From positions 1-9,735 of IMG/VR virus record IMGVR_UViG_2671180460_000011: 9,735 nucleotides of DNA. One strand, written 5' to 3'. The number at the start of each line of letters is the position of its first letter. The first letter of the stretch is position 1. Source of the stretch: a virus. Its lineage: Duplodnaviria; Heunggongvirae; Uroviricota; Caudoviricetes. The position numbers were made by a program, and so were the translations under genes. This document shows positions 1-9,735 of the stretch, one piece after another. The notes under the pieces were generated by a model. That model saw only the letters and a program-made list of their open reading frames with translations, did no database searches and was not told the origin of the DNA.

Positions 1-252
1 TTACCATATTTCGTCACCCGCAGGGGTGGATTTACCCCAGACATCCTGCTCGCTAAGTTCCGCGGCGTTCATGTCACACTGTGCCAGCAGTTCATCAAGC
101 GAGTAGCGCCTGGAGATGGGTGTCAGAATCAGTTGGTTGTTGCTCACCTGCGCTTCCACGCTCTGCCCCGGCTGTAAGTTAAGTTCTTTCATTACGATAT
201 TGGGAATGACCATACCTGCACTGTTCCCCCATCTTTTTATGGTAATACGCAT
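1..252 (-). CDS. chpS: ChpS (ChpBI) antitoxin of the ChpB-ChpS toxin-antitoxin pair, MazE/AbrB-fold; host gene
   Basis: Translation MRITIKRWGNSAGMVIPNIVMKELNLQ...GDEIW (83 aa) matches my recollection of E. coli ChpS and resembles MazE. ATG at 250-252 (rc), GGAGG at 258-262 (rc) 5 nt upstream, stop at 1-3 (rc TAA). The ORF track's start at 258 is an in-frame GTG two codons upstream. Confidence 0.75.
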   Translation of the reverse strand: MRITIKRWGNSAGMVIPNIVMKELNLQPGQSVEAQVSNNQLILTPISRRYSLDELLAQCDMNAAELSEQDVWGKSTPAGDEIW

Positions 253-266
253 CTGCACCTCCTTAA

Positions 267-543: not shown

Positions 544-1539
544 TTATGGGCAATATCTGGACAACTCAGCCACAGGATTAAAGCGCACAGCATCCTGTAG
601 ATAATCCGGTGCAAAATGGGCATAAGTCATCGTCTGCTGAATAGTGCTATGTCCAAGTATTCTCTGCAAAGTGATGATATTCCCACCATTAATCATGAAG
701 TGAGTGGCAAAGGTATGCCGTAAAACATGTATCGACTGCCCTTCAGGAAGATCGGGCCTCACCTTTCTGATAGCAGCTCTGACAGCTGCATAACTTGGAT
801 AAATTAAACGACCAGTGGCCTTTGTTTTAATCATGCACTCCAGTTCTGACGATATAGGTATAACGCGACGCTTCCCATTTTTGGTTTCCATAAAAATGAC
901 TTTGCCGCTAATAACATGCTCCCCCTTGATATTTGCAACCTCACTCCATCTTCCACCTGTTGCCAGACACAACAAGACTGCTTTTAATTCATCACCAGAT
1001 AACAACTCCAGTAATCGTGGAATATCTTCATGATACAAATAAGCCATTTCAGGCTGTTTGATATTAAGTTTTTTCACATCATGAAACGGATTAGCCCCAG
1101 AATATTCCTCTGCGTCAATTAGTTTTGTGAAAAAACCACTCATCATTGCGCAATAACGATTAACCGTGGATTGTTTTATTCCGCGGTTAAGCAACAATAA
1201 CCGATAATTAATTATGTTCTTACGAGTAAGTTGGTCACTGCGTGTAACATTAATACTTTCAAGATCACTAATGACCGCAGAAATACGCACTCGCTCCATC
1301 GAACCGTAAGGATGATTTTTACCGTGATACAACCACCAACAATCCAGCAACTCCCTCAGCGAGCGCCGTTCTGTTGGCTTATCAACCCAGTCTTTGTCGT
1401 GGTAATGCTGCAATACATGACGCTCATACAAAACAGCCTCACCACGAGTATCAAATCGCCGCCTGAATCTCTTTCCTTCTGATCCAGCAGGCCGCACGTC
1501 CACACAAAATTTGCCATTAGCGAGCTTCTTAATCGACAT
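544..1539 (-). CDS. int: Tyrosine recombinase / integrase, P2 Int family
   Basis: 331 aa from MSIKKLANGKFCVDVRPAGSEGKRFRRRF. The C-terminal HVLRHTFATHFMINGGNIITLQRILGHSTIQQTMTYAHFAPDYLQDAV nearly matches the P2 Int catalytic region (HxLRH box, catalytic Tyr in YAHF). ATG at 1537-1539 (rc) with GGAGGG 7 nt upstream. The ORF track's extra 12 N-terminal codons lack an RBS. Confidence 0.9.
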   Translation of the reverse strand: MSIKKLANGKFCVDVRPAGSEGKRFRRRFDTRGEAVLYERHVLQHYHDKDWVDKPTERRSLRELLDCWWLYHGKNHPYGSMERVRISAVISDLESINVTRSDQLTRKNIINYRLLLLNRGIKQSTVNRYCAMMSGFFTKLIDAEEYSGANPFHDVKKLNIKQPEMAYLYHEDIPRLLELLSGDELKAVLLCLATGGRWSEVANIKGEHVISGKVIFMETKNGKRRVIPISSELECMIKTKATGRLIYPSYAAVRAAIRKVRPDLPEGQSIHVLRHTFATHFMINGGNIITLQRILGHSTIQQTMTYAHFAPDYLQDAVRFNPVAELSRYCP

Positions 1540-1605: not shown

Positions 1606-1899
1606 TTAACCAGTTTTCTTGCCGGAGCGGGATGATTCCACTTCGTCTTGCCCAATGTGTGCGAGAGCCGGTACAACCTGCCCGGCCTTGGGTTCAACTT
1701 CATCAAACAAAAACCAGTCGCGATATTTAGAAAATCTCGGGTGCTTGAAAAGCTTGATAGTGATCTCAAGGCCAGGAAGGTTACGACCATACTCATAACT
1801 GGTCAGAGCAGAATAAGAAATCCCAATCATATCAGCGAATTCCCGCTGAGTGAGATCTTCAGATTTACGCATGACGCGAATTTTTTGAGGAATGTCCAT
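1606..1899 (-). CDS. C: Immunity repressor, P2 C-type (short HTH repressor)
   Basis: 97 aa MDIPQKIRVMRKSEDLTQREFADMIGISYSALTSYEYGRN...PALAHIGQDEVESSRSGKKTG aligns along its length with P2 C as recalled (IVLMRKSE...YGTLSYYESGR...PALAHFGQNE...SGQKTG). ATG at 1897-1899 (rc), AGGAG 8 nt upstream. Same strand as and upstream of int, as in the P2 C-int transcript. Confidence 0.85.
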   Translation of the reverse strand: MDIPQKIRVMRKSEDLTQREFADMIGISYSALTSYEYGRNLPGLEITIKLFKHPRFSKYRDWFLFDEVEPKAGQVVPALAHIGQDEVESSRSGKKTG

Positions 1900-2013
1900 T
1901 TGACAAACTCCTACACATGTGTAGATTAATACCACATATGAACAGCAAACAAATGTTCTAAGTGGTTCCAACTAGTGCCAATTAGAAAAAGCACCAATGG
2001 CGGAGGATATCAG
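1900..2013. promoter_or_regulatory. Lysis-lysogeny switch region: candidate rightward early promoter and operator palindrome
   Basis: TTGACA at 1900-1905 (+), TAGATT at 1922-1927 (16-bp spacer). A 14-bp perfect palindrome CTACACATGTGTAG at 1911-1924 sits between these hexamers. The leftward Pc promoter is expected further right but I could not pin it confidently. Confidence 0.45.
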
Positions 2014-2439
2014 ATGCAAGAAAGCACTCAAAACGCGCCTGAGTCACTTTGCGGAACACGATGCGCTCACCTGTCAGAAATGCCAGAAGGGGAGCATCAA
2101 AAAACAGAACGCAAAGCACGTGAACGTGAAGAAATTCGACTTTCAGAAAATCCCTCGCATCTCCTGTCAAAAGAAGGATTTGCGCTGTATATCGGCAAAA
2201 CGGTTAGCGCCATTGTGAGCATGGCTAAAGCAGGGAAATTGCCAGCCGTGTATATGGCAGACCCTCTTAGGCCAGGAGGAAACGCTGAACTCTACATCAA
2301 CAGAAAAGCGTGGGATGAAGCATGTGATCGCTTGATCGAAAACGCTCCGCAGGAATGGCATGACTGGGAAAACCGCCTGTTTTTATTTAAGCCGACACAT
2401 AGCGAACGAAGCAGAACTAAAAAAGCGAGGGCCGCATGA
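2014..2439 (+). CDS. cox: Cox-like excisionase / early-promoter regulator with an unusual ~50-aa N-terminal extension
   Basis: The C-terminal ~85 aa (LSKEGFALYIGKTVSAIVSMAKAGKLPAVYMADP...AWDEACDRLIENAPQEWHDW) parallels P2 Cox (EFAKLIGKSTGAVRRMIDKGKLPVIDMTDP...AWNNGLKLAYESRPKEIRDGW). ATG at 2014 with GGAGGA at 2002-2007. Alternative in-frame start at ATG 2080 has no SD. Confidence 0.65.
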   Translation: MQESTQNAPESLCGTRCAHLSEMPEGEHQKTERKAREREEIRLSENPSHLLSKEGFALYIGKTVSAIVSMAKAGKLPAVYMADPLRPGGNAELYINRKAWDEACDRLIENAPQEWHDWENRLFLFKPTHSERSRTKKARAA

Positions 2440-2543
2440 TTGCTTTATTGTTAACACATTATTTTCGTCGCCGTTATTTCAAACACGGGCAGTTAGTGGG
2501 CTATATCACACTGCCTGAATGAGTTAAAAGAGGTAACAGTAGA

Positions 2544-2951
2544 ATGAATCACAAAAATAAAGCGCTACTGGAACGACTGGAAACCCTGAAAAACGAAAAG
2601 CCACACCAGAAGCTTTTGCTGGTTTTTCCGGGCAAACCACAGGTTGAAATCAGCATTGACTACCACGAATTACACAGAACGTTCGCTGACCTGATGGCAT
2701 TTAAATCAAAGCTTCAGAATGGCGAAGATTTGAAAAATGTTACCCTGCATCCTGATGATGAATACGGTCATTTTTGTCGAGATGGTGTCAAAGAAACGAT
2801 TGGAATGATTTTAGAACCAATATACGGCGTTGCGCTCCGTTTCCCCGCCAAAGAAATCTTTGAGCTTTATCGACAAATTTTAAGCAGTGACAACATGGTT
2901 ATTGAGGTCGGAAATGTGCCAGAGAAAATCTCCGGCACGGGAGTTAAATAA
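2544..2951 (+). CDS. Hypothetical protein (135 aa), AT-rich moron-like gene
   Basis: Complete ORF, ATG 2544 with AAAGAGG at 2527-2533. No family recognised. Visibly AT-richer than flanking phage genes. Confidence 0.55.
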   Translation: MNHKNKALLERLETLKNEKPHQKLLLVFPGKPQVEISIDYHELHRTFADLMAFKSKLQNGEDLKNVTLHPDDEYGHFCRDGVKETIGMILEPIYGVALRFPAKEIFELYRQILSSDNMVIEVGNVPEKISGTGVK

Positions 2952-3134
2952 TCACTCAGGGAAAGTCCATGTACTTGCCTGAGGATATTTTTCCAACGTG
3001 AGCTTACGCACTTCGTGCATAAGCTTACGAATGGTATTTGATGGCTCTCCTTTATTCGGAGGATTAACCGGCGCTTTCTCTAATACAGAAATTGCCGCAT
3101 TTAGCGCATCAATAACCTTTTTATCATAGGACAT
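2952..3134 (-). CDS. Hypothetical small protein (60 aa), convergent with and abutting the 135-aa gene
   Basis: ATG at 3132-3134 (rc) with AAGGA 7 nt upstream on the minus strand. Its stop (2952-2954) is immediately adjacent to the stop of the + gene (2949-2951). No family recognised. Confidence 0.4.
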   Translation of the reverse strand: MSYDKKVIDALNAAISVLEKAPVNPPNKGEPSNTIRKLMHEVRKLTLEKYPQASTWTFPE

Positions 3135-3276
3135 ATTTTATTCCTTTGTGGTTGGTTGAACACGCGCCCTTTACAGCCCCTTCAAGACTGTGGGCGGTGG
3201 AAAAATACCACAAAACCATGCGCCGGGCATGGCTAAAACCCGGCACAAATTCGCAACAGCAGCAGGATATTTTTGT

Positions 3277-3627
3277 ATGAAGCAACGACGTAATTCTTCA
3301 CAGCAGCGATTCCGCAACGGGACGGAACGCCACGCTAACCGCTTCGCTACCAGTGCATCACGTAGCAGCTCTCGCTACAGCCTGAACGAAACGCACGCAA
3401 CACCAGACGGACACGCTGTAAAACAAATCGGCGAGCATACCTGGCTGATTGAGAAAGCTGGAATCGTGGTCCACAAATGCCCGCGCAATCCGTTTACCGG
3501 AAACCGCATTTTTGCTCTGAGCAGCGGCGACAATCAGTTCGGGCAGGATTTCACATTATACGAAGCGCTTCGCACGGTTGATCGTCTGCTGCGTGGACAG
3601 AGTTTTATTAAACAGGCTGATTTATAA
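3277..3627 (+). CDS. Hypothetical phage early protein (116 aa; basic N-terminus)
   Basis: ORF open from 3190 (GTG); preferred start ATG 3277 with AGGAT at 3264-3268. Alternative ATG at 3229 has no SD. No family recognised. Confidence 0.5.
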   Translation: MKQRRNSSQQRFRNGTERHANRFATSASRSSSRYSLNETHATPDGHAVKQIGEHTWLIEKAGIVVHKCPRNPFTGNRIFALSSGDNQFGQDFTLYEALRTVDRLLRGQSFIKQADL

Positions 3628-3637
3628 CAGGTGCTTT

Positions 3638-3925
3638 ATGACTAAAGACCATACTCAAGGTGTATTTATCCGCTTTATTGATTTTCGCGGTGAACTGTTA
3701 TTACGCGCATCCGCTATTGATGGAGTGGCTCCGGCGGGGAAAAACGGAGCCGCCGAAGCCACTTACGTTTATCTGAACGGCACGCGACTGATCGTGGAAC
3801 TTCCGTACCAGACCGTACGCGAAATCATTAGCGAAGCTGAAAAGGCTCGTCAGGTTAATGGCGATAAACCCTATATCGAAATTATCTGTATGGATTCAGA
3901 AGCTGAAATCCAGAAGGCAGATTAA
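3638..3925 (+). CDS. Hypothetical phage early protein (95 aa)
   Basis: ATG 3638, 10 nt after the upstream stop, with a weak SD (AGGTG 3629-3633). Coding-like composition. No family recognised. Confidence 0.5.
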   Translation: MTKDHTQGVFIRFIDFRGELLLRASAIDGVAPAGKNGAAEATYVYLNGTRLIVELPYQTVREIISEAEKARQVNGDKPYIEIICMDSEAEIQKAD

Positions 3926-3935
3926 AGGGTGTGCG

Positions 3936-4178
3936 ATGGACAAAGAATATAAAGCTCTTGTCAACAAAGCACTTGAGCGTTTTTATTTTCGCTTAAACAC
4001 ATCAGGGGCCCAGGCAGAACACGCAGCCCATGATTCATTAGCGAGGGCAATCAGAAGCCTTTATGACGTGGCCTTTTACGCTGACGATTTGGATGCGATT
4101 AACGAACTTTCCGAACTCGTCTGCGCTGCAGAATGCGGGGATCGCATTGAACCATATAAACTGGGGAATATCGCATGA
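3936..4178 (+). CDS. Hypothetical phage early protein (80 aa)
   Basis: ATG 3936 with AAGGG at 3925-3929. Its stop TGA 4176-4178 overlaps the ATG 4175 of the next peptide gene (ATGA). Confidence 0.5.
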   Translation: MDKEYKALVNKALERFYFRLNTSGAQAEHAAHDSLARAIRSLYDVAFYADDLDAINELSELVCAAECGDRIEPYKLGNIA

Positions 4179-4312
4179 GTATATTTATGTCATGGATTGT
4201 TCTGATTATTTCGGTGGCCTGCGCAATCGGGATTATGCGAATTATTCATTCAGTGAAAAAGATTGAGCGTTTTTTTCTGACGAATAACAGCACAAATAAA
4301 ACACCAGATTAA
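4175..4312 (+). CDS. Small single-pass membrane peptide (45 aa), MSIFMSWIVLIISVACAIGIMRIIHSVKKIERFFLTNNSTNKTPD; absent from the ORF track
   Basis: Hand-translated codon by codon. ATG 4175 with GGGGA at 4163-4167 and ATGA overlap with the upstream stop. A ~19-residue hydrophobic stretch is followed by a basic tail (RIIHSVKKIER). Stop TAA 4310-4312. Confidence 0.4.
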   Translation: MSIFMSWIVLIISVACAIGIMRIIHSVKKIERFFLTNNSTNKTPD

Positions 4313-4380
4313 ATAAGAAAACGTGAAAACCATCCGAATTAGCGGAGGCATTCACACACGTAAATAATGGAGATAGAAAA

Positions 4381-4791
4381 ATGAACGCAAAAGAAAAAGG
4401 CATTGTAACTGCGCTAAAAAATATATCGAAGACCGCAAACAGAGCCATTCAGGATGCAACAAATGCAGGAATGATTGGGCCTGCCACCACAGCCATGATG
4501 ATAGCAAGAGCAACCGCCGAAGCAGCCGAAATCATCGAAAAACAGGATGCTGAACTAACGGTTCTCAAAACACAACCAACCACCAGACTGAATTTATCTG
4601 ACATTGGACACCTTATTCATATTATTGGCTCGGAGCTACAGCAATACATCATTATCGCCGAATTGCAGGACAAATACCTGATTACCCCTTACCCCATAAG
4701 AGAGTCAGAAGTTCTGACAAATCTCCGCCTGATAGAACGCACTCAGGTCGCATTCATTGATGGCACGCAACGTGCCGTATTTAACGCATAG
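4381..4791 (+). CDS. Hypothetical protein (136 aa), Ala/Thr-rich N-terminal half; AT-rich gene with its own RBS
   Basis: ATG 4381 with GGAGA at 4369-4373, preceded by a 68-bp AT-rich spacer. No family recognised. Confidence 0.55.
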   Translation: MNAKEKGIVTALKNISKTANRAIQDATNAGMIGPATTAMMIARATAEAAEIIEKQDAELTVLKTQPTTRLNLSDIGHLIHIIGSELQQYIIIAELQDKYLITPYPIRESEVLTNLRLIERTQVAFIDGTQRAVFNA

Positions 4792-4814
4792 GGCTATTGG
4801 ACAAAGAGAGCGTA

Positions 4815-5018
4815 ATGGCAATTAAGCATTTTCCCGTCGTTCGCTTTACCTCCAGAGGGCGCGAATACGAGGTCGACGAACGCCTGATTACCACTATCGA
4901 CAAACACCGTTCAGAAAAAGATGCACATCACATCTATCTCACTGACGGCACTTACTTCTGCGCCACCAACGTGGTGCAGGTGAATCTTATCAGACTGGTA
5001 CAGGAGTCACGCAGATGA
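4815..5018 (+). CDS. Hypothetical small protein (67 aa)
   Basis: ATG 4815 (MAIKHFPVVRF...) with AAGAGAG upstream. The ORF track start at 4797 is TTG. Stop TGA 5016-5018 overlaps the next start (ATGA). Confidence 0.5.
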   Translation: MAIKHFPVVRFTSRGREYEVDERLITTIDKHRSEKDAHHIYLTDGTYFCATNVVQVNLIRLVQESRR

Positions 5019-5260
5019 CCATTCTGGACTACATCGCCGCCAATCCGGGTTGTAGCGGTGGAGAAATCGCCGCAGCACTGAATACCCCAACCACAGCCAT
5101 TAATGCGGAGTTACGCCGACTCTGGCGCGACGGCTTAGTCATCAGAGAAGAACGCAAAACAGGCGGTCGGTTCTCTTACCAGGTAAACCCGATGCCGTTC
5201 GGGTGTGGCAACCCACTTACTCACATGTTTAACCAGCTACTGCAGGAAGCCAGAGCATGA
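5015..5260 (+). CDS. Small winged-helix DNA-binding protein (81 aa)
   Basis: ILDYIAANPGCSGGEIAAALNTPTTAINAELRRLWRDGLVIREERKTGGRFSY has the look of a MarR/PadR-like wHTH with a basic wing. ATG 5015 with CAGGAG at 5001-5006; ATGA coupling at both ends. Confidence 0.55.
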   Translation: MTILDYIAANPGCSGGEIAAALNTPTTAINAELRRLWRDGLVIREERKTGGRFSYQVNPMPFGCGNPLTHMFNQLLQEARA

Positions 5261-5556
5261 GCACCATCAACCACCAGGAACTACGCGAACTGGCGACTGA
5301 CCTGCAACGAATAGCAACGCATCAAAAATTACTGGCGTTTCGCGCAATGCTCTCGCCATCTGCCGTGCTGGCACTGCTGGATGAGCTGGAGCACGCCAGA
5401 ACCATGGCTCCTGCCATTCGCCTGACGCTCCATCATGAAATCGCTGATTTCTGTGCACCACTGGGTTCACCTGGCGAACCGGAAACACCGGAAGCAATGC
5501 AGCGAGAGCTGCTGCAACACATCGACAACGTTTTCGATTTTTTCCTTAACCAGTAA
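5257..5556 (+). CDS. Hypothetical phage protein (99 aa); N-terminus faintly reminiscent of Ead/Ea22-like proteins
   Basis: ATG 5257 (ATGA overlap), AGGAAG at 5244-5249. The start MSTINHQELRELATDLQ resembles the Ead/Ea22 N-terminal pattern; weak, from memory. Confidence 0.5.
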   Translation: MSTINHQELRELATDLQRIATHQKLLAFRAMLSPSAVLALLDELEHARTMAPAIRLTLHHEIADFCAPLGSPGEPETPEAMQRELLQHIDNVFDFFLNQ

Positions 5557-5567
5557 AGGACCGCGAT

Positions 5568-5771
5568 ATGAACAAAAAGACCTGGTTTCGCGCATACATG
5601 TGGGCGCTGGTATGCGTCCTCGTCTCTCTCATTCTGTATGCAGGACTACTCCCCCGAATGATTTCATCAGACAGCTCCTTCCTGGTATTGCTGGGCATTT
5701 TCATTGCCATGCTGTACCCGGCAGGCGTTGTTCGCCTTTTCAGTAAGTACATCAAGGAAATCAAACAATGA
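5568..5771 (+). CDS. Small integral membrane protein, two predicted TM helices (67 aa)
   Basis: ATG 5568 with AAAGGA at 5555-5560. Two hydrophobic segments (WALVCVLVSLILYAGLL and FLVLLGIFIAMLYPAGVV) separated by a short polar loop. Stop TGA 5769-5771 overlaps the ATG 5768 of the SPFH gene. Confidence 0.6.
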   Translation: MNKKTWFRAYMWALVCVLVSLILYAGLLPRMISSDSSFLVLLGIFIAMLYPAGVVRLFSKYIKEIKQ

Positions 5772-6598
5772 AGAAATTCAAACTCTTTCAGATTCTCCCG
5801 CTTTTTGCCGCCATCCTGCTGGTTGGTTGCGATCGCGTTGAGCCAGGTAATGTGGGCATCAAAGTCAACAAACTGGGCGACGACAAAGGCGTCGGCGAAG
5901 TGGTTGGCGTTGGCCGCTACTGGACTGGCTGGAATACCGAGGTTTACATCTTCCCGACCTTCAAACAAATGAAGACCTACGATGAGCCGTTCAGCTTCCA
6001 GATGAGTGACGGCACAACCATCGGCTATCACATCGGTGTGGCCTACAAGGTTGATCCATCCAAAGTTACTACAGTGTTTCAGACCTACCGCAAAGGCGTG
6101 GATGACATTACCGACACTGACCTGCGCCAGAAGATCGCCGATGCACTCAACCGACTGGCCAGCAAAATGACCACCGACAAATTTATCGACGGCGGGAAAT
6201 CTGAACTACTGGATGCAGCTCTTAAAGACATTCAGGAGGAAATGACACCCATCGGTATTCAGGTAATGAGCCTCTCATATGTGGGTAAGCCGGAGTACCC
6301 GTCAACCGTTATCGACAGCATTAATGCCAAAGTCACGGCAAACCAGAAAACCCTGCAACGCGAACAGGAAGTCAAGCAACGTGAAGCAGAAGCCAACATG
6401 TTGCGCGCAGAAGCTGCCGGACAGGCTGATGCCATTCGCACAAAAGCCCAGGCTGAAGCCGACGCCATTCGTTTGCGTGGTGAAGCTCTGCGCCAGAATC
6501 CCGGTGTTATGGAGCTGGAAGCGATTAACAAATGGAACGGCACGCTACCGCAATACATGACCAGTAACACCGCTGTTCCGTTTGTTCCGGTGAAGTAA
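5768..6598 (+). CDS. SPFH/band-7 (stomatin/HflK/HflC/prohibitin-like) domain lipoprotein, predicted inner-membrane anchored (276 aa)
   Basis: The N-terminus MKKFKLFQILPLFAAILLVGC-D has a signal peptide and lipobox LVGC (Cys21), with Asp at +2, the classical inner-membrane retention signal. The body has SPFH-like composition and a C-terminal Ala/Glu/Gln/Arg-rich coiled-coil (QREQEVKQREAEANMLRAEAAGQADAIRTKAQAEADAIRLRGEAL) typical of band-7 proteins. Confidence 0.8.
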   Translation: MKKFKLFQILPLFAAILLVGCDRVEPGNVGIKVNKLGDDKGVGEVVGVGRYWTGWNTEVYIFPTFKQMKTYDEPFSFQMSDGTTIGYHIGVAYKVDPSKVTTVFQTYRKGVDDITDTDLRQKIADALNRLASKMTTDKFIDGGKSELLDAALKDIQEEMTPIGIQVMSLSYVGKPEYPSTVIDSINAKVTANQKTLQREQEVKQREAEANMLRAEAAGQADAIRTKAQAEADAIRLRGEALRQNPGVMELEAINKWNGTLPQYMTSNTAVPFVPVK

Positions 6599-6605
6599 TT
6601 CAACC

Positions 6606-6627
6606 CGGCCAGTGAAACCGCTGGCCG
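6606..6627. other. Hairpin (CGGCCAG / 8-nt loop / CTGGCCG) 8 nt after the SPFH stop; no T-tract on either strand
   Basis: 7-bp perfect stem seen in sequence. Not a canonical intrinsic terminator; possibly an RNA-stability or processing element. Confidence 0.3.
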
Positions 6628-6665
6628 AAAATATAACGAATAAACAAAAAGCCAGAGGACAGAGC

Positions 6666-6812
6666 ATGCACAAAGCCTTTGAACGATGGATGCGCCAGCG
6701 TTACGGCAATCGCTATGACCTGACAAGGGATGTTGATGGCTACTACTGCCGCGAAATTGTGAAACGAATGTTTGAAGTGTGGTGTCACGCTCGCGGCCTG
6801 TACGCCGTGTAA
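6666..6812 (+). CDS. Hypothetical small protein (48 aa)
   Basis: ATG 6666 with AGAGGA at 6654-6659. The ORF track's longer version starts at a GTG (6612) inside the upstream hairpin, so I prefer 6666. No family recognised. Confidence 0.4.
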   Translation: MHKAFERWMRQRYGNRYDLTRDVDGYYCREIVKRMFEVWCHARGLYAV

Positions 6813-6951
6813 TCCATGTCACTGTCAGAAGATTAACCCATGTACACACAAAAAAACCGCTTGCCATGCCGTAATCAGTCAGGTTACATTTCCGCTGCAC
6901 CTCATAAAACGGGTGCCGGGTTTCGCAGCCTGCTGACTAGCAAAGCGCACA

Positions 6952-6971
6952 ACCGCGCCAGCGGTTTTTTT
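6952..6971 (+). terminator. Candidate Rho-independent terminator ending the long early operon
   Basis: ACCGC-GCCA-GCGGT hairpin (5-bp stem, 4-nt loop) immediately followed by T7 (6965-6971). The stem is short, so strength is uncertain. Confidence 0.45.
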
Positions 6972-7150
6972 GTGCGTACCGTATCGCCACGTCTTTTTCG
7001 CACACGAATTATGGTGGGGCGTATGGGGCCGACTTCGGTCGGGCCGGGTTCTTTGCTAGCCGGTACTGCGAACCTCGTACGTCTCGCCACCCACAGTTTC
7101 GCAGCTCTGGATGGTGAGTTTTCACAACTTACTAGCAAAGAGGCCACACC

Positions 7151-7378
7151 ATGGCAAACCGCAAACAGCGCGCATACGCTGCGCGTCGTCACATCCAGAC
7201 TGAAATCGATCGCAGACTCACCCGCGCTGCACACATCGCCTTTATCATGCAATCCAACACATTGCACAGACTCAACAGCACTATTTCAGCCGACTACTGC
7301 GCCGCTGTATTCAGCTATCTGGCGGAAGACCTCCTGTCTCTTCAGGATCTCATCCAGCAGCAAAACAAACTCCATTAA
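7151..7378 (+). CDS. Hypothetical phage protein (75 aa)
   Basis: ATG 7151 with AAGAGG at 7138-7143. No family recognised. Confidence 0.5.
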   Translation: MANRKQRAYAARRHIQTEIDRRLTRAAHIAFIMQSNTLHRLNSTISADYCAAVFSYLAEDLLSLQDLIQQQNKLH

Positions 7379-7450
7379 TTACGGTACCAGGTCTCTCCTG
7401 CACTTTGCGGCGGGAGGCCTGCGCACATCTTTAACAAAGCGAGGTGCAGC

Positions 7451-7840
7451 ATGATTGACCGTCATGACTTCGTAAAATGGGTGCGCACACAGGACACCCG
7501 TCTGGCTCCAAAACTTCAGGCAATGTTTGATCTCTATCTCCGTGCCCGTGCCAGCCAGGCACGCACCACAAAACCGGAGAACACAGACACCCTTTATTTC
7601 ACCGTGGACGACTGTTACCGCGTGGTCTTCACACCACACGGTCTGGCCCTGTACACCCTGACACCACGCAGCGACTCCCTGCTGGCGTATTACAACTCCC
7701 CGGCTTCTGTATTTGCAGCCATACTGGCGCATCGCACCGCTGGCGGGTGTGCATCGCTGAATGAATACACCGCTGAATTTAACCGCCTGTCCGCCCTCTT
7801 CTCGCAGGAGTGGCAGCGCGTGACGGGATACCAGCCATGA
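7451..7840 (+). CDS. Hypothetical phage protein (129 aa), translationally coupled to gene A
   Basis: ATG 7451 with GAGG at 7441-7444. Stop TGA 7838-7840 overlaps the ATG 7837 of A (ATGA). Confidence 0.55.
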   Translation: MIDRHDFVKWVRTQDTRLAPKLQAMFDLYLRARASQARTTKPENTDTLYFTVDDCYRVVFTPHGLALYTLTPRSDSLLAYYNSPASVFAAILAHRTAGGCASLNEYTAEFNRLSALFSQEWQRVTGYQP

Positions 7841-9735
7841 GTGAGTTTGCATGGAGCTGGAATGAACCGCAGCCAGCCATTGATCCGGACGACTTCGCGA
7901 ACTTCAGTCGGTTGCCAAAAACCGGACTGCAACGCGCCATTCGTTACTACCGCGAAGCGGACAAAAAGGCTCAGGAAGAACAGGAAGCGAAGGAAGAAGC
8001 CCTTTTCGCACAATCCGATACAGGCAAAAAACTCATGGCGTCCCTTGAGGAAGCCGGGCAACGCGAAAAACTGATAAAAAACATCATCAGTAAGCGCCAG
8101 GAAATAAAGCAAGACCCGGTGGCCCGTGCCTTTGCCAAACTGAAGGCACTTCCCGTTTATTTGCGTGCCCCCCTGAGCCGCCGCCTCTCTTTTTTGCGTA
8201 AAAAGCAAGAGTCAGACCGCCAGAAAGGGAAAAAAGCCAGTCAGGCTGACGGGTACGCGCAGGGAACGCTGCGCAAGATATTCGAACGTCTGGACCGCAC
8301 CGACCGCCGCTGGCTGACCCCGGCTTATTGCGCCCTTGCCGGACGTGAACGCCTGGACGATTTGCTGTACCTGCCGCAGCTTAACAAGCACCAGATACAG
8401 ACGCTGGCCACCATGACTGCGGCGATGTTCAGCTGCACCTTCGAAAAACTCTGCGATGGCTTTGGCGCGACTGATGGCGAGCTGACCATGGATGTAACGC
8501 TGAAGGCATATCAGATGCTGGCCCGCATGGCGTTACACCTGCACGCCATGCCGCCACATTATGACGCACTGACAACAGATAAAGACCGGAGGAACGAACC
8601 GGACACGGAGCTGCTGCCGGGCGCAATCCTTCGCCTGACCTGTGCGGAATGGTGGAAACGCAAACTGTGGCTGTTACGTTGCGAGTGGAGAGAAGAACAA
8701 CTCCGCGCCGCCTGTCTGGTTTCCAGAAAAACATCACCCTATCTGAGCCAGGACGCGTTAAGCGAGTTTCGCGCACAGCGCGAGAAAACACGCGATTTCC
8801 TGAAAAGTTTCATGCTGGAAAATGAAGACGGGTTCACGATTGATCTCGAGACGGTGTATTACGCGGGAGTAAGTAACCCGGTTCACCGTAAGGCAGAAAT
8901 GATGGCCACCATGAAGGGACTGGAACTTCTGGCCGAAGCCCGTGGCGACAGAGCGGTGTTTCTGACCGTCACCTGCCCGTCAAAATACCACGCAACAACG
9001 GAGAACGGTCATCCGAACCCCAAATGGAACGGGGCCACCATGCGCGATTCCAGCGATTACCTGGTTAACACGTTTTTTAAGGCGGTCCGCAAAAAACTGA
9101 ACCGCGACGGCCTGCGCTGGTATGGCATTCGCACGGTGGAGCCTCACCATGACGGCACCGTGCACTGGCACATGATGGTCTTTGCACATCCGGAAGAAAT
9201 CGACAGCATCGTGGACATCACCCGTGATATTGCCATTCGCGAAGACCGCCACGAGCTGGGCAATGACATAACTCCGCGCTTTAAGGCAGAGTACGTCGAC
9301 GGTTCGAAAGGTACGCCGACCAGCTACATCGCCACCTACATCGGAAAGAACCTGGACAGCCGCGCCGTGGATGGCATTGACCCGAAAACAGGCAAACCGC
9401 GCATCGACGACGAATCAGGAAAGACGATGGCAGAAAGCGTGGAACGCGCCATCGGCTGGGCGCGCCTTCACCGGGTCCGCCAGTTCCAGTTCTTTGGCAT
9501 CCCCTCCCGTCAGGTATGGCGTGAACTGCGCCGCCTTGCCTGTCAGATGGCACGTAACCCACAGGGACCGCAACGTCTGGAAAATGACGCAATGGATGCG
9601 GTTCTTGCTGCCGCTGATGCCGGATGTTTTGCCACCTACATAGAGAAACAGGGCGGCGTGCTTGTTCCACGCAAAGACTACCTGATTCGCACCGCCTACG
9701 ACCTCGCAGATGAGCTGAACGATTACGGCGAACAG
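7837..9735 (+). CDS. A: Rolling-circle replication initiator endonuclease, P2 gpA family; 3' end lies beyond the window
   Basis: Frame open from ATG 7837 to the window end (633 codons); I checked it codon by codon. Absent from the ORF track, presumably because no stop lies in the window. Contains the HUH-type motif EPHHDGTVHWHMMVF (HWH at 9162-9170). Its position as last gene of the early operon fits P2 A. Confidence 0.85.
   Translation, partial: MSEFAWSWNEPQPAIDPDDFANFSRLPKTGLQRAIRYYREADKKAQEEQEAKEEALFAQSDTGKKLMASLEEAGQREKLIKNIISKRQEIKQDPVARAFAKLKALPVYLRAPLSRRLSFLRKKQESDRQKGKKASQADGYAQGTLRKIFERLDRTDRRWLTPAYCALAGRERLDDLLYLPQLNKHQIQTLATMTAAMFSCTFEKLCDGFGATDGELTMDVTLKAYQMLARMALHLHAMPPHYDALTTDKDRRNEPDTELLPGAILRLTCAEWWKRKLWLLRCEWREEQLRAACLVSRKTSPYLSQDALSEFRAQREKTRDFLKSFMLENEDGFTIDLETVYYAGVSNPVHRKAEMMATMKGLELLAEARGDRAVFLTVTCPSKYHATTENGHPNPKWNGATMRDSSDYLVNTFFKAVRKKLNRDGLRWYGIRTVEPHHDGTVHWHMMVFAHPEEIDSIVDITRDIAIREDRHELGNDITPRFKAEYVDGSKGTPTSYIATYIGKNLDSRAVDGIDPKTGKPRIDDESGKTMAESVERAIGWARLHRVRQFQFFGIPSRQVWRELRRLACQMARNPQGPQRLENDAMDAVLAAADAGCFATYIEKQGGVLVPRKDYLIRTAYDLADELNDYGEQ

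Follow-up and report, generated by a model that had tools for sequence, protein, structure and literature searches.

What fills the long interval between cox and the replication gene A of a P2-like prophage, and is it cargo or part of the phage's own lysogeny switch? The question is raised by a 9,735-nucleotide stretch of viral DNA (the window; IMG/VR record IMGVR_UViG_2671180460_000011), which is the terminal 9.7 kb of the Escherichia coli draft contig LIVI01000009.1 (GCA_001420065.1), with identical gene layout. An earlier note, made from the sequence alone, had described positions 2440-7840 as an expanded accessory zone of small unrecognised open reading frames (ORFs), where new functions were most likely. 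We consider it likely that the interval is a P88-type early operon of mostly conserved genes, in which an RNA cassette of the type found in P4 and P1 gates a gene resembling P4 epsilon; the mechanism we infer from those two systems.

The cassette occupies 6861-7378, immediately upstream of a small gene, o129, and of A, and had been missed by the earlier note. Its elements are as follows.

6861-6890, plus strand: promoter-like site TTGCCA-18-TACATT (consensus scan), ending 7 nucleotides (nt) before the IsrK-like match
6897-6971, plus strand: IsrK/P4-seqA-like leader RNA (Rfam RF01394, 65.5 bits, gathering cutoff 50), carrying a1 at 6922-6928 and b1 at 6937-6945
6951-6966 plus a T-run to 6971, plus strand: intrinsic terminator of the leader, a six-pair hairpin (terminator scan)
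7007-7094, plus strand: C4/P4-CI-type antisense RNA (Rfam RF01695, 79.9 bits, gathering cutoff 45, full length), carrying b' at 7049-7059 and a' at 7066-7072
7098-7104 and 7132-7142, plus strand: downstream targets a2 and b2, located by sequence, b2 overlapping the Shine-Dalgarno GAGG at 7140-7143
7151-7378, plus strand: eps75, a short P4 epsilon homologue of 75 amino acids (aa) (phrog_3688, E 2e-34)

Both RNAs score well above the gathering cutoffs of their Rfam families, and the literature equates IsrK with seqA of P4 and C4 with CI RNA (Barquist 2013, PMC3632133; Hershko-Shalev 2016, PMC4825925). The minimum-free-energy fold of the C4-like RNA (-44 kcal/mol) agrees with the family structure, while the Rfam c4-a1b1 model matches weakly, at 20.5 bits versus 46.7 curated. 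Two segments of the C4-like RNA are complementary to sites both upstream and downstream of it. The hairpin loop CUUUGCUAG (in 7049-7059) is complementary to CUAGCAAAG, found at b1 (6937-6945) and at b2 (7132-7140), and the single-stranded CUGCGAA at 7066-7072 is complementary to UUCGCAG at a1 and a2. The b2 duplex extends to 7142 and covers AAGAG of the Shine-Dalgarno sequence, the GAGG of which stands 7 nt before the ATG at 7151, so that b2 lies on the ribosome site of eps75. The a/b target motifs have no other site in the window. At a coverage of at least 80%, the cassette is found in 1146 of 5426 complete E. coli genomes (21%). Both isrK and C4 are present in P88 and in four other relatives tested, and the cassette also occurs in a second Peduoviridae group with long early operons; neither RNA was detected in P2 or 186. 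Literature searches turned up no account of C4 or IsrK from P2-like phages, and no paper linking an epsilon-like gene to C4/IsrK RNA.

The complementarity is maintained through sequence change. In an alignment of 45 distinct versions of 6850-7165, drawn from viral and genomic contigs, 98.7% of 718 cells pairing C4 with a1/b1 are standard pairs, with 153 double-sided changes; none of 500 shuffles was as high, and sliding the partner by 1-3 columns left 26-51% paired. Between C4 and a2/b2, pairing holds in 97.0% of 810 cells and double-sided changes number 157; slid controls over the upstream and downstream sites gave 26-53%. All three copies of each recognition element co-vary. Variation is concentrated in the six short a/b elements, and the stems, terminator and promoter hexamers are invariant or nearly so; the hexamers are constant in the 45 sequences except for one position of the second, itself conserved in at least 90%, with a spacer that varies at up to 10 positions. 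The specificity elements fall into 5 a' and 14 b' types, which form 19 combinations. The a' and b' elements therefore reassort, much as in the heteroimmunity of P1 and P7, on a larger scale. Among P4-like elements (n=79; L140-L219) there are 8 b' loop types and 3 a' types beside nearly identical epsilon proteins, so RNA specificity in that group diversifies much faster than the neighbouring protein.

The gene behind b2 was compared with the epsilon proteins in several ways. BLASTP aligns 51 aa of eps75 with P4 epsilon at 33% identity, the profile-profile program hhalign, set against P4-type epsilons, gives a probability of 91.4% and an E value of 9e-7, and 25 of 25 distinct family members match Pfam Derepression (PF25738) at E<=0.01, the best at 1.6e-7. 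By these comparisons eps75 is identified as a homologue of P4 epsilon. Its ORF is intact in 46 of 46 loci, and the frame is judged to be coding because substitutions are enriched at third codon positions: among 39 distinct sequences the minimum numbers of changes at positions 1, 2 and 3 are 38, 37 and 69. C also exceeds G more strongly in this gene than anywhere else in the window (C 33.8%, G 18.0%; C/G ratio 1.88 vs about 1.05 for the rest of the operon), a bias typical of Rho utilisation sites. RNA that is C-rich and G-poor loads Rho if it is untranslated. A consensus scan found no promoter-like site between eps75 and A.

A working model can be assembled from these elements. The C4-like RNA would be made from the cassette promoter, or cut from early transcripts as in P1 and P4, and would pair with a2/b2 to block translation of eps75. 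Untranslated eps75 RNA should load Rho, because the ORF is so C-rich and G-poor, and transcription would then terminate before o129 and A. Both the anti-repressor and the replication gene could thus be kept silent in the lysogen, which would constitute a second, RNA-based layer of immunity. The a1/b1 leader may compete with, modulate or titrate the C4-like RNA. With the block lifted, a P2-type C repressor would be inactivated by the epsilon-like protein, and a prophage would become inducible even though its repressor has no self-cleavage domain.

P2 is the textbook example of a prophage that is not inducible, and P4 that of a satellite able to derepress P2 via epsilon. Here P2-like E. coli prophages of a very common family, including those of O157 strains, carry an epsilon homologue of their own, apparently under an antisense RNA and just ahead of the replication gene. 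Should the cassette function as proposed, it would supply a concrete mechanism for the puzzling induction of such prophages by mitomycin, provide a helper-class phage with a second immunity layer and link the immunity region of P4, in its origin, to the early operons of Peduoviridae. P4 epsilon binds and inactivates a P2-type C repressor (cited in PMC2669165, PMC8628076). The P2-like prophage Sp13 of O157 Sakai is induced by mitomycin though its repressor has no peptidase motif, and an epsilon-like gene has been suggested as the cause (Asadulghani 2009, PMC2669165); P88 was likewise obtained after mitomycin C treatment (PMC5285337).

The cassette can be set beside three known systems. The P4 immunity region (PLE, seqA, CI RNA, seqC, epsilon ... 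alpha) yields the three Rfam matches of the window in unchanged order and has the identical a1-b1-terminator-CI-a2-b2 layout, followed by an epsilon-family gene and, further downstream in the same operon, a replication gene. The differences are that the window element is a full P2-like phage and P4 a satellite; that the RNA-to-gene distance is 57 nt in the window vs about 245 nt in P4; that b2 overlaps the Shine-Dalgarno sequence in the window vs a position about 200 nt upstream of epsilon; that the epsilon homologue has 75 aa vs 95 aa; that the replication gene is A (a rolling-circle nickase) vs alpha (a primase-helicase); and that the sampled elements have no specificity sequences in common. 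P4 orf151 was considered as the counterpart of o129 and set aside, as the two show no similarity. Synteny with P4 stops after epsilon, since o129 is unrelated to orf151.

For the immI region of P1 and P7 (c4 RNA, icd, ant) we draw on general knowledge and a review (PMC12197685). It shares with the window a C4-family RNA (RF01695) in which two elements match a1/b1 upstream and a2/b2 downstream, a downstream site that occludes the ribosome site of the next ORF (in the window, as far as its sequence indicates), a regulated product that is an anti-repressor (a predicted activity in the window) and specificity alleles that lead to heteroimmunity (P1 vs P7). It differs in that the product in the window is of the epsilon family rather than Icd/Ant and the primary repressor is P2-type C, not P1 C1, and alleles are far more numerous in P88-type cassettes (19 combinations in 45 sequences). 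The IsrK/orf45/anrP system of the Salmonella prophage Gifsy-1 (PMC4825925) resembles the window in its IsrK-family leader with a terminator of its own; the short and read-through transcripts, the processed downstream RNA and the regulated anti-repressor gene of Gifsy-1 have predicted counterparts in the window. In Gifsy-1, however, the short IsrK RNA activates translation in trans, and nothing tested in the window shows activation; the downstream genes are orf45 and anrP, and the prophage is lambdoid. That the cassette is of the P1/P4 antisense-immunity kind, and that it resides in a helper-class phage where it is widespread and unannotated or misannotated, is well supported.

Several points weigh against the proposed model or parts of it. 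The eps75 of the window reaches only 22 bits against Pfam Derepression, with a gathering cutoff of 27, and is 20 aa shorter than P4 epsilon, being without the C-terminal third. In P4, b2 is not on the ribosome site, and because its placement differs the two mechanisms may differ too. RNase P processing, Rho polarity onto A and anti-repressor activity would all be carried over from P1 and P4 by analogy. In a presence/absence matrix of 91 loci (80 viral contigs found via Cox, 8 via o135, and P88, P2 and 186), epsilon alleles do not track C-repressor alleles across loci; with epsilon alleles untied to C alleles, there is a mismatch that a strictly self-directed anti-repressor is not predicted to show. 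The proposition that epsilon alleles follow C alleles was accordingly given up as unsupported by the matrix. A search for a LexA box that would link the cassette to SOS yielded nothing above chance, and the SOS-box explanation of induction was dropped for that reason. A second frame across the cassette, the 'Ash' frame discussed below, stays free of stops in 44 of 45 module sequences as well as 46 of 46 loci examined, and its TGA at 7452-7454 overlaps the o129 ATG at 7451; the model explains neither.

The surroundings of the cassette are those of a P2-like immunity and early region, in the order int, C, cox, early genes, A, and C is a short helix-turn-helix protein with no peptidase domain. 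The remaining features of the window are these.

1-258, minus strand: MazE-type antitoxin gene
544-1539, minus strand: tyrosine integrase
1606-1899, minus strand: C immunity repressor of P2 type, 97 aa (Pfam HTH_3; 44% identity to P2 C by tblastn; 97-aa gene call on LIVI01000009.1)
1900-1927, plus strand: Pe-like early promoter TTGACA-16-TAGATT (consensus scan, 10/12), placed as Pe is in P2 and of putative function
2014-2439, plus strand: long Cox-family protein, 141 aa, gene 1 of the early operon (Pfam Phage_Cox, 96.9 bits; phrog_1831; 90% identity to P88 gp03)
2544-2951, plus strand: o135, 135 aa, small orphan-like family, absent from P88
2952-3134, minus strand: o60m, 60 aa, its stop abutting that of o135 (homologues in the same position; good Shine-Dalgarno sequence; no family match)
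3277-3627, plus strand: DUF4761 protein, 116 aa, core (Pfam DUF4761, 231 bits; phrog_2492; 25 loci)
3638-3925, plus strand: o95, phrog_3800 (E 1.5e-60), function unknown, 19 loci
3936-4178, plus strand: DUF4754 protein, 80 aa, core (Pfam DUF4754, 158 bits; 25 loci)
4175-4312, plus strand: o45, small single-pass membrane ORF, core (hydrophobic N-terminus in translation; 25 loci by tblastn; P88 gp07 annotated 'membrane protein')
4381-4791, plus strand: o136, phrog_9338 (E 1e-57), variable insertion, not in P88 (within P88-unmatched 4361-4801; 15 of about 25 P88-type loci)
4815-5018, plus strand: o67, phrog_3459 (PHROG match), core, 24 loci
5015-5260, plus strand: MarR-type winged-helix protein, 81 aa (Pfam MarR_2, 34.6 bits; HTH_24, 30.7 bits; phrog_1687)
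5257-5556, plus strand: Ead/Ea22-like small protein, 99 aa (phrog_4144, E 3e-59; Pfam Ead_Ea22, 22.6 bits, below cutoff)
5568-5771, plus strand: two-helix membrane protein, 67 aa, start/stop overlap with the SPFH gene (phrog_1130 'membrane protein'; co-occurs with SPFH)
5768-6598, plus strand: SPFH/Band-7 lipoprotein, 276 aa, lipobox LLVGC (Pfam Band_7, 106.7 bits, threshold 23.6; phrog_200)
6666-6812, plus strand: o48, phrog_3871 (E 4e-31), variable insertion, not in P88 (within P88-unmatched 6628-6846; 4 loci)
7451-7840, plus strand: o129, phrog_3237 (E 8e-55), its stop overlapping the A start (ATGA)
7837-9735, plus strand: A replication endonuclease, ATG at 7837, first 633 aa (Pfam Phage_GPA, 435 bits; 31% identity to P2 A, 38% to 186 A by tblastn)

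Much of what the earlier note had read from the letters holds. Its estimate of about 5.4 kb and 14 small genes between cox and A agrees with a cox stop at 2439, an A start at 7837 and 14 plus-strand ORFs, all of them called as genes on the identical contig; the interval also contains a conserved ORF on the minus strand (2952-3134) and, unseen by the note, two genes for small RNAs. The corresponding interval is small in P2, as the note had stated (1.75 kb, 6 genes; the window is about three times longer), and measures 3.3 kb with 9 genes in phage 186 (the window is 1.6 times longer) and 3.95 kb with 12 annotated genes in P88. The P2 type of the immunity module is borne out by the C protein and the Cox-family protein, and the mosaic composition by G+C contents of 0.40 (2850-3150), 0.56 (3300-3600) and 0.57 (6900-7200). 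The absence of P2 B, which had been noticed from ORF size, is real beyond size, since tblastn of P2 orf78, B and orf80-83 over 2440-7840 gave noise only. The suggested likeness to 186 did not survive: 186 cII, fil, dhr and orf79-84 also gave only noise in the same interval, so the likeness is one of length alone. Short noise matches there reach a best E of 0.026 for any P2 or 186 early protein, and with the complete sets of early proteins of both phages the matches in the window are int, C, cox and A only. What the early operons of P2 and 186 have in common with the window is the position between cox/apl and A, the rightward direction, a promoter of the Pe type that faces C, and a small ORF that overlaps the beginning of A; they differ in that the window shares none of their cox-to-A genes, being without B, cII, fil and dhr, that neither reference phage has an isrK or C4 match and that the window lacks a LexA-controlled tum.

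Of the described phages, Escherichia phage P88 (Xuanwuvirus, Peduoviridae; NC_026014 / KP063541) comes closest, with 90.9% nucleotide identity over 73% of the window, and 11 of the 14 ORFs have P88 counterparts at 67-99% aa identity. The window is about 1.4 kb longer because of the P88-unaligned segments 2420-3267 (o135/o60m), 4361-4801 (o136) and 6628-6846 (o48); the last small ORF and the N-terminus of A are replaced in a fourth divergent stretch (7438-8157). P88, the Citrobacter phage phiSM and Sp13-type prophages of O157 Sakai are alike in showing about 91% nucleotide identity over int, C, cox, DUF4761-DUF4754, o67-SPFH, the RNA cassette and A, in the same gene order, with a P2-type C, a long Cox and isrK and C4 upstream of a 'derepression protein'. 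P88 differs in its C allele (71% identical), its epsilon allele (67%) and its C4 specificity, and in having no annotated RNA genes, a minus-strand ORF, gp13, being placed over them. This hypothetical gp13 (5033-5221, minus strand) overlies isrK (5028-5102) and C4 (5138-5225), for which reason it is probably spurious.

Across about 25 P88-type contigs of the matrix the order DUF4761, phrog_3800, DUF4754, small membrane ORF, phrog_3459, MarR, Ead-like, (membrane and SPFH), RNA cassette with epsilon-like gene, A is kept. The constant core consists of DUF4761, DUF4754, the 45-aa membrane ORF, o67 and the RNA cassette with the 75-aa gene; o95, MarR and the Ead-like gene occur in most loci, the membrane/SPFH pair and o136 in about 60% of P88-type loci, and o135/o60m, o48 and o129 are uncommon among them. 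Among phages whose Cox is at least 77% identical the interval measures 3.45-6.07 kb; in a second group (Cox 61-63% identical) it is longer still, 5.6-6.9 kb, with other genes, and in the P2-type majority it is about 1.8 kb. Parts of the interval are present in 1999 of 5426 complete E. coli genomes, and none of these genomes has the same mosaic, the best showing 88-92% identity at no more than 80% coverage. Read from the portion contained in the window, 2440-7840 can be identified as the rightward early operon of a prophage of the P88 type (Xuanwuvirus, Peduoviridae). Since its genes are conserved and syntenic and its length falls within the range of its relatives, it is an ordinary early operon at the long end of the subgroup range rather than an exceptional expansion, and the term 'expanded accessory zone' overstates the case. 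Domain searches, which the earlier note had recommended for every ORF, place 12 of the 14 plus-strand ORFs in PHROG or Pfam families, nearly all of them without an assigned function; comparison with P2, 186 and related prophages, also recommended by it, shows the early genes of P2 and 186 to be unshared. Of the two things that the note had named as counting against its view, conserved synteny in a described subgroup holds, whereas known functions are mostly lacking. NCBIfam gave no match for 10 ORFs, PADLOC only two marginal matches (E 0.006 and 0.008, 12-14 bits), and PDB sequence searches with o135, o136, o129 and the DUF4761 protein returned nothing or noise. The minus-strand ORF that overlaps o48 has no PHROG match.

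The convergent pair o135/o60m directly after cox is a variable part of the operon with relatives of its own. The stop codons of the two genes abut, and both have good ribosome sites. At 90% clustering o135 has 32 relatives, all at 70% identity or more, and a profile search of 1.84 billion representatives added two credible distant relatives. Both of these, and a 140-aa protein of an enterotoxigenic E. coli prophage, sit directly after cox, and each of the three is followed by a 62-64-aa minus-strand gene. The four small o60m-type proteins are homologous (40-43% identity within two closer pairs, E 2e-16 and 5e-17) and share the motif MSxDxK...NPP...KYP. The pair, at 2544-3134 in the window, 2752-3372 in L220, 2136-2739 in L221 and 4001-4602 in L222, thus consists of a plus-strand gene of about 131-140 aa and a minus-strand gene of about 60-64 aa, with stops that abut or overlap in three of the four prophages. 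Family and structure searches found no family or fold for o135 (a shallow-alignment AlphaFold model has a predicted local distance difference test score of 44), and o60m has no family match in Pfam, PHROG, NCBIfam or PADLOC. Because divergent prophages carry homologous small partners in the same post-cox slot, o135/o60m is a conserved two-gene positional module at the switch and not random cargo. That it has a role in establishing lysogeny is no more than a guess, prompted by where cII and its leftward promoter lie in 186.

The earlier note had also proposed a search for host-takeover proteins of the Icd/Ash type, and this led to the right place but to a misleading match. A 204-aa ORF in the 'Ash' frame (6840-7454, plus strand) spans both RNAs and, in another frame, eps75, and could be taken for a real 'Ash family' protein beside which the RNA matches are incidental. 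Pfam Phage_ASH (PF10554) scores 25.5 bits here, with a cutoff of 26, and 28.1 bits for the homologue in L051; the frame is open in almost every sequence, its stop overlaps the o129 start, and gene callers and the Prokaryotic Genome Annotation Pipeline (PGAP) sometimes call it. The match covers residues 16-107, however, which is nt 6885-7160, exactly the isrK and C4 span (the corresponding locus of L220 is 6886-7158), and in P4 it falls on the historical 'cI ORF' (8168-8584, minus strand) that overlaps CI RNA, while epsilon itself is the prototype of PF25738. In the RNA module the Ash frame has no third-position excess, with variable columns at codon positions 1/2/3 numbering 17/27/25 and changes in the a/b elements 33/33/32; within 7151-7375 variation peaks at the third codon position of eps75, equivalent to the second in the Ash frame. 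The variable positions are those of three-way compensatory RNA pairings, spurious ORFs of 120-213 aa are common in the window, and in at least one genome PGAP flags the locus as an 'ash family protein, incomplete' pseudogene, with no RNA feature. In the absence of a codon-position signature in either the RNA module or the eps75 region, the Phage_ASH match is regarded as a translated RNA locus, and a genuine Ash protein as very improbable. The practical consequence is that annotations now record the locus variously as 'ash family' pseudogene, hypothetical protein or ORF on the reverse strand, and that Pfam Ash, taken as the epsilon marker in a survey of P4-like satellites (PMC8628076), matches the RNA locus instead of epsilon. 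Even smaller is the chance that the cassette is a decaying, non-functional remnant of recombination with a P4-like satellite, an idea suggested by its clear P4 homology and its patchy occurrence in Peduoviridae (absent from P2 and 186). It is carried by 1146 complete genomes, its promoter hexamers, terminator and RNA stems are near-invariant, eps75 is intact wherever examined, and changes in the specificity elements occur only with compensation across three sites, a pattern that requires continued selection.

The cassette could also act mainly between elements, either through a C4 RNA that bars matching P4-like satellites and related phages or through an epsilon-like protein that induces heteroimmune P2-type prophages. 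It is homologous to the satellite's own immunity region, IsrK-C4 systems of prophages have been proposed as a defence against satellites (Barquist 2013, PMC3632133), 19 reassorting specificity combinations resemble an arms race or heteroimmunity, and the epsilon alleles are unmatched to the resident C allele. Yet none of the 8 b' and 3 a' types of the 79 P4-like elements equals a type in the 45 P88-type cassettes, so that a shared specificity had to be rejected for the sampled sequences, and in each cassette the a1/b1 and a2/b2 sites fit the resident C4 almost without mismatch, which shows at least self-regulation. We regard an inter-element role as the main function as unlikely. Still less probable is the view from which the earlier note began, that the interval is mainly a zone of cargo (morons, host-takeover or anti-phage genes), expanded here and a likely source of new functions. 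Part of it stands, in that several pieces vary among close relatives (o135/o60m in 10 and 8 loci, o136 in 15, o48 in 4, membrane and SPFH in about 15 of about 25), G+C is mosaic, phrog_1130 is filed under 'moron / host takeover', o135 is without detectable family or fold and the SPFH gene is about 92% nucleotide-identical in unrelated phiP27 and Shiga toxin (Stx) phages. Against it, all ORFs but one are co-oriented with tight or overlapping, operon-like junctions, DUF4761, DUF4754, o45, o67 and the cassette with eps75 occur in essentially every P88-type locus in the same order, the PADLOC matches are unconvincing, and o135/o60m forms a conserved positional module beside the switch. The P88-type operon with a gated epsilon-like gene is thus the reading we retain. 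A wider form of it is possible, though we hold it only tentatively: a satellite-type RNA cassette gating both anti-repressor and A would, in some 19 or more alleles, be a second immunity that explains inducibility and mediates conflict or cross-talk between P2-like and P4-like elements, and o135/o60m could be a further part of the switch.

Some observations concern the neighbouring genes. On LIVI01000009.1 the prophage has as neighbours chpS/chpB, ppa and ytfQRT-type ABC transporter genes; the chromosomal chpS/chpB, a MazE/PemK-type toxin-antitoxin pair, adjoins the prophage beside ppa, and in the related contigs L051 and L058 the same prophage type adjoins ppa without the toxin-antitoxin pair. 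The window contains no tRNA genes, and A is truncated at residue 633, where both window and contig end. The translated SPFH gene has a signal peptide with the lipobox, and its product a weak match to HflK (7vhq); in phiP27 and many Stx1/Stx2-converting lambdoid phages the similar gene is annotated 'serine protease'. The membrane and SPFH genes look like an exchangeable module, because SPFH is shared with phiP27/Stx phages, travels with the 67-aa membrane gene and occurs in no more than about 60% of P88-type operons. At the other end of the operon, o129 is confined to loci with an A at least 91% identical. Over 7438-8157 the last small ORF (o129 in the window, an unrelated 121-aa ORF in P88) changes allele together with the first approximately 100 codons of A, which suggests a functional or recombinational link between the small pre-A protein and the N-terminus of A.

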